Assembly (NCBI RefSeq): GCF_003334305.1
Contig: NZ_QOWS01000001.1
DNA: 64,000 nucleotides
Direction: 5' to 3' (one strand)
From: Escherichia coli
Lineage (GTDB): Bacteria > Pseudomonadota > Gammaproteobacteria > Enterobacterales > Enterobacteriaceae
This document shows positions 295-50,061 of this stretch, piece by piece (position 1 is the first letter of the stretch; each line of letters begins with the position of its first letter). The notes beneath the pieces were generated by a model that saw only the letters and a program-made list of their open reading frames with translations, was not told the origin of the DNA and searched no databases. A program made the translations under genes and the position numbers.

Positions 295-428
295 AATATA
301 CTCGTCATACTTCAAGTTGCATGTGCTGCGTCTGCGTTCGCTCACCCCAGTCACTTACTTATGTAAGCTCCTGGGGACTCACTCACTTGTCGCCTTCCTG
401 CAACTCGAATTATTTAGAGTATAAATAT
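295..428. repeat. ERIC / IRU (enterobacterial repetitive intergenic consensus) element, full length ~130 bp imperfect palindrome
   Basis: Contains both classic ERIC primer cores: atgtaagctcctgggga.tcac and, as reverse complement, aagtaagtgactggggtgagcg; palindromic ends tatactc...gagtata. Confidence 0.8.
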
Positions 429-9386: not shown

Positions 9387-9559
9387 AAAGTTCTTTGACG
9401 TTGCATTGCTGGCGTAAATGTCAGCAATGCAGCATTTCCTCACGATTCTCCTTTGACGATCGCACTTTTTGCTCGTTATGATGGCGTCGCTAGCCTCAGT
9501 AAATCCTTACTCCGGCGGTGCGCAACCCGTGCGCGTGAACCACTATCTGAATGCTCATC

Positions 9560-29941: not shown

Positions 29942-30028
29942 AAATAAAAAAACCTGCTGGTGAGGCAGGTTCTTTTATTTACTATTTTCAGGCCTAACAC
30001 CACAGCCTGTGCAACATCGTGTTCCAAC
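29942..30028 (-). ncRNA. orzP: Orz-like antisense sRNA (type I antitoxin), copy proximal to yehL; approximate ends
   Basis: Minus-strand sigma70 promoter (-35 ttgcaa 30058..30063, -10 tataat = plus attata 30035..30040); intrinsic terminator 29951..29971 plus U-run; 5' end complementary to zor leader at 30175..30194. Confidence 0.55.
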
Positions 30029-30266: not shown

Positions 30267-30356
30267 ATGGACTCGCTGACACAAAAGTTAACCGTGCTCA
30301 TTGCTGTACTGGAGCTATTAGTGGCTCTGTTACGGTTGATTGATTTGTTGAAGTAA
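30267..30356 (+). CDS. zorP: 29-aa hydrophobic type I toxin peptide, Zor family (MDSLTQKLTVLIAVLELLVALLRLIDLLK)
   Basis: ATG 8 nt after SD ggagag; single TM helix with C-terminal Lys; predicted leader ~174 nt from TSS ~30093; O versus P naming inferred from position. Confidence 0.6.
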   Translation: MDSLTQKLTVLIAVLELLVALLRLIDLLK

Positions 30357-30551: not shown

Positions 30552-30636
30552 AAATAAAAAAACCTGCTGGTGAGGCAGGTTCTTTTATTTACTACAGTGA
30601 CGCTAACTTGCTGATTGTGCAACATTTCGTACCAAC
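30552..30636 (-). ncRNA. orzO: Orz-like antisense sRNA (type I antitoxin), copy proximal to yehK; approximate ends
   Basis: Same architecture as copy 1: -35 ttgcaa 30666..30671, minus -10 at 30643..30648, terminator 30561..30581; 5' end complementary to leader 30785..30802. Confidence 0.55.
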
Positions 30637-30874: not shown

Positions 30875-30964
30875 ATGGACACGCTGACACAAAAGTTAAC
30901 CGTGCTCATTGCCGTACTGGAGTTATTAGTGGCTCTGTTACGGTTGATTGATTTGTTGAAGTAA
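30875..30964 (+). CDS. zorO: 29-aa hydrophobic type I toxin peptide, Zor family (MDTLTQKLTVLIAVLELLVALLRLIDLLK)
   Basis: Differs from copy 1 peptide by one residue (T3 vs S3); SD ggagag; hand-translated, below ORF-track cut-off. Confidence 0.6.
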   Translation: MDTLTQKLTVLIAVLELLVALLRLIDLLK

Positions 30965-30984: not shown

Positions 30985-31012
30985 TAAGGGGGAATACCGT
31001 TTCCCCCTTTAA
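30985..31012 (+). terminator. Intrinsic terminator of toxin mRNA (copy 2)
   Basis: aaggggga ataccgt ttccccctt hairpin. Confidence 0.6.
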
Positions 31013-31017
31013 GAAAG

Positions 31018-31073
31018 CTATACTCGTCATACTTCAAGTTGCATGTGCTGCGACTTTAATTATCTAGAGTATA
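31018..31073. repeat. Short ERIC variant (both ERIC termini joined, central part absent)
   Basis: ctatactcgtcatacttcaagttgcatgtgctgcg matches the left end of the ERIC at 295..428, and aattatctagagtata matches its right end. Confidence 0.65.
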
Positions 31074-31391
31074 TTATTCTATTTCTTGGTTGAATATATT
31101 CTGTAGTTCACGATTAAAAATTGCTATTACAGTTTCAGGTGATTCACCTCGTAATTTCCGCTCATCAATACACTCATCTCTTATATAAATCAACGCATCA
31201 TTTATTAGCGGGTCAGCATCTTCTCGATCACGTTGATGAAATGTTGGATGTAGCCGGAATCGCTCCAGTCGATAGACGGAACCTGTAAATAATTCAGAGC
31301 ATTTATGGATCTCAAGTCTGAAGGAAAACGGATCTTCAGGTACAGGGACCTCATAATCGTAAATAGCAACTAGCTCTTTTTGCACGATCAT
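31074..31391 (-). CDS. yehK: Uncharacterised small protein YehK (105 aa)
   Basis: ORF MIVQKELVAIYDYEVPVPEDPFSFRLEIHK...; recognised by sequence and position downstream of yehI. Confidence 0.75.
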   Translation of the reverse strand: MIVQKELVAIYDYEVPVPEDPFSFRLEIHKCSELFTGSVYRLERFRLHPTFHQRDREDADPLINDALIYIRDECIDERKLRGESPETVIAIFNRELQNIFNQEIE

Positions 31392-49929: not shown

Positions 49930-50061
49930 ACCAAACGACTCGGGGTGCCCTTCTGCGTGAAGGCTGAGAAATACCCGTATCACCTGATCTGGATAATGCC
50001 AGCGTAGGGAAGTCACGGACCACCAGGTCATTGCTTCTTCACGTTATGGCAGGAGCAAACT
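49930..50061 (+). promoter_or_regulatory. TPP (thiamine pyrophosphate) riboswitch / THI-box in the thiM leader
   Basis: cggggtgcccttctgcgtgaaggctgagaaatacccgtatcacctgatctggataatgccagcgtagggaa matches the THI element consensus, directly upstream of thiM. Confidence 0.85.

Follow-up and report, generated by a model that had tools for sequence, protein, structure and literature searches.

The 127-bp repeat known as ERIC or IRU (RU-1) reportedly goes back to work by Sharples & Lloyd 1990, Hulton et al. 1991 and Wilson & Sharp 2006. Palindrome-induced deletion of ERICs is said to have been treated by Sharp & Leach 1996 and short forms by Wilson & Sharp 2006, and ERICs with insertions of about 70 bp were reportedly described by Cromie et al. 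1997. The kind of element analyzed here is already known, as ERIC insertions into TA near stop codons and internally deleted forms have been described since the 1990s. ERICs are miniature inverted-repeat elements (MITEs) with TA flanks, which are often co-transcribed at the 3' ends of genes and have 3'-UTR effects (PMC3184786, PMC10969869). The second described system that concerns the locus is zor-orz, a type I toxin-antitoxin locus studied by the Fozo lab (PMC3919570, PMC11264685). The window (the whole 64-kb stretch of Escherichia coli DNA that was analyzed) contains two tandem zor-orz modules with 29-aa ZorP and ZorO ORFs, as in EDL933; the toxins are named according to PMC11264685, where ZorP corresponds to T3S. 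The ERIC copy lies outside the zor-orz module, as a later independent insertion between the terminator of the module and yehK.

The window copy shares with ERICs the conserved termini (TATACTCG... and ...GAGTATA), the imperfect palindrome, the intergenic location in a transcribed 3' region and the TA flanks, and it also resembles them in being one of several copies per genome and in having full-length orthologues at this site in other strains. It differs in that the central 72 bp, and with them the core to which ERIC-PCR primers are directed, are missing. The terminal inverted repeats of ERIC (TATACTCGTCATACTTCAAGTTGCA... and ...GAATTATYTAGAGTATA) are present in positions 31019..31073, whereas the central core (...CACCCCAGTCACTTACTTATGTAAGCTCCTGGGGA...) is absent from these positions but present in the same-site copies of four other genomes (L003, L012, L018 and L027; representative loci are labeled in this way throughout). 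Since the core is kept in these orthologous copies, the window copy is a deletion derivative of an ERIC member. Dispersed copies were found at 297..423 of the window and at the rtcB'-yafP locus, and for a query containing the element, the median number of matching places in an E. coli genome was 5. In internally deleted ERICs, the centre of the palindrome is lost between symmetric direct repeats; the window copy has the same structure, which recurs at independent copies. Like the Yersinia ERICs at stop codons, the window copy lies directly past a stop, would be co-transcribed with the upstream gene and can form a hairpin; unlike them, it is truncated.

Position and identity of the short ERIC copy

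Among E. coli strains, M8 is 100% identical to the window, and O157:H7 and O111 strains are ~99% identical. The gene order around the element is yehL (minus strand), two tandem zor-orz modules, the zorO terminator, the short ERIC, yehK (minus strand) and then yehI. The relevant features, including a full-length ERIC elsewhere in the window that served as reference, are as follows:

297..423, no strand assigned: reference full-length ERIC of 127 bp (sequence match, alignment, RNA fold)
~29834, minus strand: start codon of yehL
29946..30021, minus strand: Orz antitoxin sRNA gene of the first module (Rfam RF02083 OrzO-P, 99.9 bits, gathering score 60)
30267..30356, plus strand: zorP-type toxin ORF of the first module, 29 aa, MDSLTQ... 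(ORF list)
30556..30629, minus strand: Orz antitoxin sRNA gene of the second module (Rfam RF02083 OrzO-P, 88.8 bits, gathering score 60)
30875..30964, plus strand: zorO-type toxin ORF, 29 aa, MDTLTQ..., in the module adjoining the ERIC (ORF list)
30986..31010, plus strand: intrinsic terminator hairpin of zorO, GGGGGAA-loop-TTCCCCC followed by TTT (sequence, fold, allele comparison)
31018..31020, minus strand: former tandem in-frame stop codon TAG, now across the ERIC from yehK
31019..31073, no strand assigned: short ERIC copy, with the left arm and junction repeat at 31019..31055 and the right arm at 31056..31073
31074..31391, minus strand: yehK coding sequence, 105 aa (ORF list; RefSeq 'protein YehK' at a 100% match in strain M8)

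With its ends set by the 127-nt consensus TATAC...GTATA (PMC2759123, Table 1a), the truncated ERIC is 55 bp long and occupies positions 31019..31073. Sequence and alignment show that both termini are kept and that the centre is gone. The element reads TATACTCGTCATACTTCAAGTTGCATGTGCTGCGACT|TTAATTATCTAGAGTATA, and its terminal TA dinucleotides (31019-20 and 31072-73) represent the target-site duplication. The left 33 nt (31020..31052) are identical to positions 298..330 of the full ERIC (33/33), and a search with these 33 nt at ≤3 mismatches returned only two matches in the 64-kb window, where 0 were expected by chance. The 33/33 match and this expectation rule out a chance similarity to ERIC. 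The right 18 nt align with the right ERIC terminus in an alignment of short, full, long, empty and remnant alleles (alignment A1), and they also align with published 127-nt ERIC/RU-1 sequences (PMC2759123). The missing centre of the copy comprises ~72 bp. As judged from these sequence comparisons, the 55 bp are what is left of a decayed copy of ERIC, a miniature inverted-repeat element.

An earlier note on this DNA had described a truncated ERIC, with both termini but no centre, at the junction of the toxin locus and yehK, and the arm matches bear this description out. The span given there (31018-31073, 56 bp) is correct at its end but not at its start, where 31018 is a flanking base and the real length is 55 bp; the full-length copy, placed by the note at 295..428, spans 297..423 according to the 127-nt consensus. 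The overlap with the yehK stop codon that the note had reported does not exist either: the last base of the ERIC (31073) touches the TAA at 31076..31074, with neither a gap nor an overlap. On its other side, the short ERIC begins 6-9 nt past the terminator hairpin and T-run of zorO.

Two Rfam hits above the gathering score are unrelated to the element, namely a Peptidase-S11 RNA motif at 9475..9555 (plus strand, 72.8 bits) and a TPP riboswitch at 49931..50027 (plus strand, 71.2 bits).

Allelic states and the insertion site at yehK

A 1.8-kb query reaching from yehL' through zor, orz, the ERIC and yehK to yehI' gave matches in 5,425 of the 5,426 complete genomes of E. coli, and these matches fell into several discrete spans. 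Representatives of each match span were read at the junction and classified by how far the last zor terminator lies from a fixed landmark in yehK. Alleles with a distance of 50-51 nt carry no ERIC and have a clean site (...AAAGCTA|TTTTTCTATTTC...); examples contain one module (L004) or two modules (L008, L013), and a more divergent ERIC-free haplotype also has two (L005, L009). A distance of 104 nt corresponds to the short ERIC (+53 bp), which is found in the window and in O157 strains (L002, L014), with a differing short form in strains N24 and ATCC 25922. The full ERIC yields 176 nt (+125 bp) and occurs with one module (L003, L012) or two modules (L027). In the 254-nt class, exemplified by L007 and also found in L029, the ERIC is long and contains an internal insert of 78 bp. 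Thus, the states without ERIC, with the short ERIC and with the full ERIC were each seen with one and with two modules, and the long ERIC with one module only.

The 78-bp insert of the long ERIC is GGTTATTCGGCCCATCCATGGACCTCACCCCTTACGGGGCCGCTACAAGTAGCGTTCAAATCCGCTCCATGCGGATTTGTC (about positions 1050-1130 of L007; also in L016 and L029) and occurs in E. coli and in Escherichia sp. MOD1-EC7003. Searched against Rfam, it gave weak sub-threshold hits only. The long allele corresponds to the described ERIC class with insertions of ~70 bp.

Frequencies were estimated from two systematic samples (100 rows from 5,445 matching E. coli records), which were classified by match span, with representatives of the span classes checked by sequence. 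Approximately 20% of the sampled records had the short ERIC, 16% the full or long form and 26% no ERIC, while 33% carried a remnant of the K-12 type and the locus was absent from 5%. In absolute terms, any of the three ERIC forms (short, full or long) is present here in about 1,800 records and a full or long one in 687, as counted with split matches joined and in a partly junction-specific manner.

Comparison of the filled and empty sites shows insertion into a TA target, as is characteristic of ERIC. Empty sites read GCTA|TTTTTC in E. coli (L004) and ACTA|TTATTC in E. whittamii (L017), and the filled site reads GCTA[TACTCG...GAGTATA]TTATTC, with a net gain of 125 bp for the full form and 53 bp for the short form. 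The ERIC entered the TA of the tandem TAG, between the TAA stop of yehK and the zorO terminator, and the yehK stop codon TAA (31074..31076, minus strand) directly adjoins it. In some ERIC-free alleles this TAG is the functional stop, giving a YehK of 106 aa. The empty site of E. whittamii (...AAACTA|TTATTC...) reads GAA-TAA-TAG on the yehK strand; because this ERIC-free site has the TAA, the TAA stop of yehK is older than the ERIC. In ERIC-free alleles the zorO terminator hairpin lies about 10 nt from the yehK stop.

The C-terminus encoded by yehK varies with the junction haplotype. Alleles with an ERIC, like that of E. whittamii, encode a product of 105 aa (TAA stop), and empty sites with GCTATTTTTC give one of 106 aa (TAG stop; L004, 1011-1013). 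In L009 (2575-2928), an ORF of 117 aa reads through the zor terminator hairpin, since nearby stops have been lost. In several B2-type strains (L003, L006, L007 and L011), RefSeq lists yehK as a pseudogene with a frameshift, and in E. coli Z1323CEC0015 (L018) as one with an internal stop. In the latter strain, an IS-type integrase gene upstream of zor takes the place of yehL and the first module. An IS1 copy is inserted in the spacer in strain H58, DETEC-P622.

Origin of the short form and its hairpin

The short copy of the window contains a single remaining 8-bp direct repeat, CTGCGACT, at 31048..31055, which marks the junction of a 72-bp internal deletion. Full-length alleles at the same site (L003, L012 and L018) possess two copies of CTGCGACT, which are 72 bp apart. 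The closest counterpart is the allele of E. coli Z1323CEC0015, a full 127-bp ERIC whose flanks (TTTAAGAAAGC...) and arms are identical to those of the window and which shares with it the unusual right arm GACTTTAATTATC. In this strain, one CTGCGACT copy is located just inside the left arm and the other forms the inner part of the right arm, and the window copy equals the Z1323CEC0015 allele minus one CTGCGACT repeat and the intervening sequence, i.e. 72 bp. Hence, the internal loss is bounded by repeats and a full-length progenitor exists at the same site, which is the pattern of palindrome-induced deletion.

The short allele of the B2-type strains N24 and ATCC 25922 carries the B2-type arm variant (CGCC; CTCGCC) of the full alleles L003 and L012. 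Judging from these linked arm and flank variants, it would most simply represent an independent occurrence of the 72-bp deletion. A comparable series exists at the rtcB'-yafP locus, which is empty in APEC O18 (L020), full in K-12 (L019) and short in FDAARGOS_1280 (L010, 1501-1556). There, the short form has the same junction (CTGCGACT|CGAATT; alignment A2), with span differences of +73 and -55 bp; it is 55-56 bp long and 92.9% identical, and in this spacer, which separates the rtcB pseudogene from yafP, it is common among genomes.

The right arm of the short allele in N24 (L006, 1012-1066) and ATCC 25922 (L011) is altered at 4 positions, from CTTGAATTATCTAGAG to CTTGAAGTATGATGAG. All 4 changes add complementarity to the left arm and result in a near-perfect hairpin of 24 bp, so that the predicted DNA hairpin of this allele reaches -18.2 kcal/mol compared to -7.2 kcal/mol for the window copy. 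From their pattern, these changes look like a 'correction' of the quasi-palindrome by template switching.

The allele comparisons show the following course of events. The zor-orz locus was already located between yehL and yehK in the Escherichia ancestor. Later, a full ERIC (123 bp plus the TA duplication) integrated at the TA immediately past the TAA of yehK, and the lineage of the window (O157, O111 and M8-like strains) then lost the central 72 bp exactly between the two CTGCGACT repeats. We count these three steps as demonstrated and the points that follow as probable. The deletion probably arose by replication slippage between the repeats, aided by hairpin formation; we infer slippage because a repeat-bounded, recurrent loss of the palindrome centre is its expected signature. 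In the yehK transcript, the 3' UTR would now begin with the remaining 55-bp imperfect palindrome, which can fold into a modest hairpin and would be followed by the zorO terminator hairpin in reverse reading. Alternatively, the centre could have been removed by ectopic gene conversion, with a different short ERIC as the donor. As a whole, the account of a late ERIC insertion, a 72-bp deletion in situ and a relic that is most likely neutral appears highly probable to us. For biology at large it changes little, as the element is an ordinary repeat relic.

Both the short and the full copy are predicted to form the long transcript hairpins typical of ERIC. RNA folding of the window copy gave -14.5 kcal/mol (z -3.0) in the sense orientation of yehK and -16.5 kcal/mol (z -3.7) for the opposite strand, and folding of the full copy at 297..423 gave -39.7 and -53.5 kcal/mol on the two strands. 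A simple scan detected neither a promoter nor a terminator within 31019..31073. No Rfam family was assigned to the short ERIC at the gathering threshold. A partial minus-strand match to isrH (RF01391; 20.8 bits compared to a gathering score of 45) covers model positions 161-216 of 280; being sub-threshold and partial, it does not identify an isrH gene and reflects a shared repeat segment. It suggests that a short segment resembling ERIC, with this same architecture, is part of the model of the Salmonella IsrH sRNA.

According to these folds, a role of the hairpin at the 3' end of yehK, which the earlier note had offered as its second reading, is structurally possible. The element could act as a functional RNA whose hairpin tunes the stability of the yehI-yehK transcript or insulates the convergent zorO and yehK transcripts. 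Such a role would fit the hairpin potential retained on both strands, the position directly at the stop codon and upstream of the shared terminator hairpin, and the almost perfect 24-bp stem of the B2-type short allele, and there is precedent in Yersinia, where reviews (PMC3184786, PMC10969869, with reference to De Gregorio 2005) report that 3' ERICs alter mRNA levels via an RNase E site. However, the states without ERIC and with a short, full, long or remnant ERIC all persist at substantial frequency in E. coli and yehK is annotated as frameshifted in several B2 strains, neither of which points to constraint, and the window hairpin is weak as DNA (-7.2 kcal/mol, z -2.3). Moreover, template switching at the DNA level accounts better for the perfect B2 stem. 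We consider a function of this kind improbable. Because all ERIC states coexist at appreciable frequency and yehK is frameshifted in several B2 strains, the relic is most likely neutral or nearly so, with at most a small effect on the 3'-end stability of the yehK mRNA. The natural series of none, short, full, long and remnant ERIC at one site could be used to measure any effect of an ERIC hairpin on a neighboring mRNA.

The 55-bp form could also belong to a subfamily of short ERICs that move in this form, so that the copy was already short on insertion. The recurrence of the 55-56-bp architecture at rtcB'-yafP and inside the Salmonella-derived isrH model would agree with this. In both E. coli loci, however, full and short forms share an identical site and flanks, the arm variants of a short copy match those of the local full copy and not those of other short copies, and the ends of the deletion fall on direct repeats. 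Insertion in the short state is thus very improbable compared with deletion in situ of a full-length ERIC.

The ERIC copy and the toxin locus

The zor-orz locus lies between yehL and yehK without any ERIC in E. albertii (L021, L022), E. marmotae (L023, L024) and E. whittamii (L017), with one module in each of the first two species and two modules in E. whittamii. Escherichia sp. E1V33 (L015) and a genome labeled as 'E. fergusonii' (L025) carry full ERICs at this position, and Escherichia sp. MOD1-EC7003 (L016) has the long form there. Homologues of YehK were restricted to Escherichia in a protein search, and among the Escherichia genomes seen, none had yehK without any zor-orz sequence. Together, these data show that zor-orz is older than the ERIC insertion in E. 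coli, E. albertii, E. marmotae and E. whittamii. As the toxin locus predates the ERIC, the latter cannot mark the edge of a toxin-bearing insertion.

The earlier note had suggested exactly this, with the ERIC as a possible boundary mark of an insertion by which the toxin modules arrived. Toxin modules without an ERIC and with a precise empty site in E. coli and three other species contradict this claim. The alignment of the yehK–yehL region across strains that the note had called for revealed no insertion boundary, as every genome found with yehK had some zor-orz sequence; the state of the ERIC varies with either number of modules. Strains lacking the toxin modules but retaining the same short ERIC and an unchanged flank had been named as the refuting case; toxin-less K-12 has kept the right ERIC terminus and not the short form, with its yehK flank unchanged. 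That the short ERIC is the edge of the segment that carried the zor-orz modules into the yehK-yehL spacer has almost no probability left: its exact position between the terminator of the last module and yehK and the missing toxin ORFs of K-12 speak for this explanation, but ERIC-free modules with a precise empty site occur in E. coli (L004, L005, L008, L009 and L013), the other Escherichia species also have zor-orz without ERIC, presence and form of the ERIC are independent of module number (strain GF4-3, for example, combines two modules with a full ERIC), every Escherichia genome seen with yehK has zor-orz sequence, and the K-12 allele is a secondary deletion in which orz, a portion of the zor 5' UTR and the right end of the ERIC survive. 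This removes a tempting wrong inference, in which a repeat at the edge of a toxin locus is taken as the boundary of a horizontal transfer.

In K-12 (L001), which has no toxin ORF, there is an orz gene and the start of the zor 5' UTR, followed by only 17 nt from the right end of the ERIC. Its junction reads ...CCAATTT|GAATTATTTAGAGTATA|TTATTC..., and the flank on the yehK side is the same as in ERIC-bearing alleles. Compared with the alleles L025, L003, L015 and L018, the orz-only allele (L001, 690-740) is a deletion of 395-397 bp that extends from the zor 5' UTR to the right arm of the ERIC. Its two ends lie at direct repeats of the form CAAYTT; in the L025 allele, the repeat is a perfect CAATTT. 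All of the sampled orz-only genomes (33/33) share the span of 868-869 bp, and their sampled frequency of 33% agrees with the published value of about 30% (PMC11264685). In terms of sequence, the alignments show the toxin-less K-12 allele as a secondary deletion ending inside the ERIC, and deletion into the ERIC explains the origin of this 'antitoxin-only' allele. The zor/orz papers PMC11264685 and PMC3919570 contain no mention of the ERIC, yehK or yehL, and an orz-only deletion that ends in an ERIC may be a new point relative to both.

A tentative extension, which we regard as rather unlikely, is that the ERIC copy has been a local driver of the rearrangements shaping the toxin locus, by providing in its right arm one of the two CAAYTT repeats for the toxin loss of ~396 bp and through its repeated 72-bp collapse and the template-switch 'correction'. 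Any promotion of toxin loss by the palindromic nature of the ERIC is speculative.

The number of modules also changes within O157. Strain O157:H7 Gim1-1 (L014) has one zor-orz module together with the short ERIC, whereas other O157 strains have two modules; the single module is consistent with a recent loss of the 608-bp unit by recombination between tandem modules.
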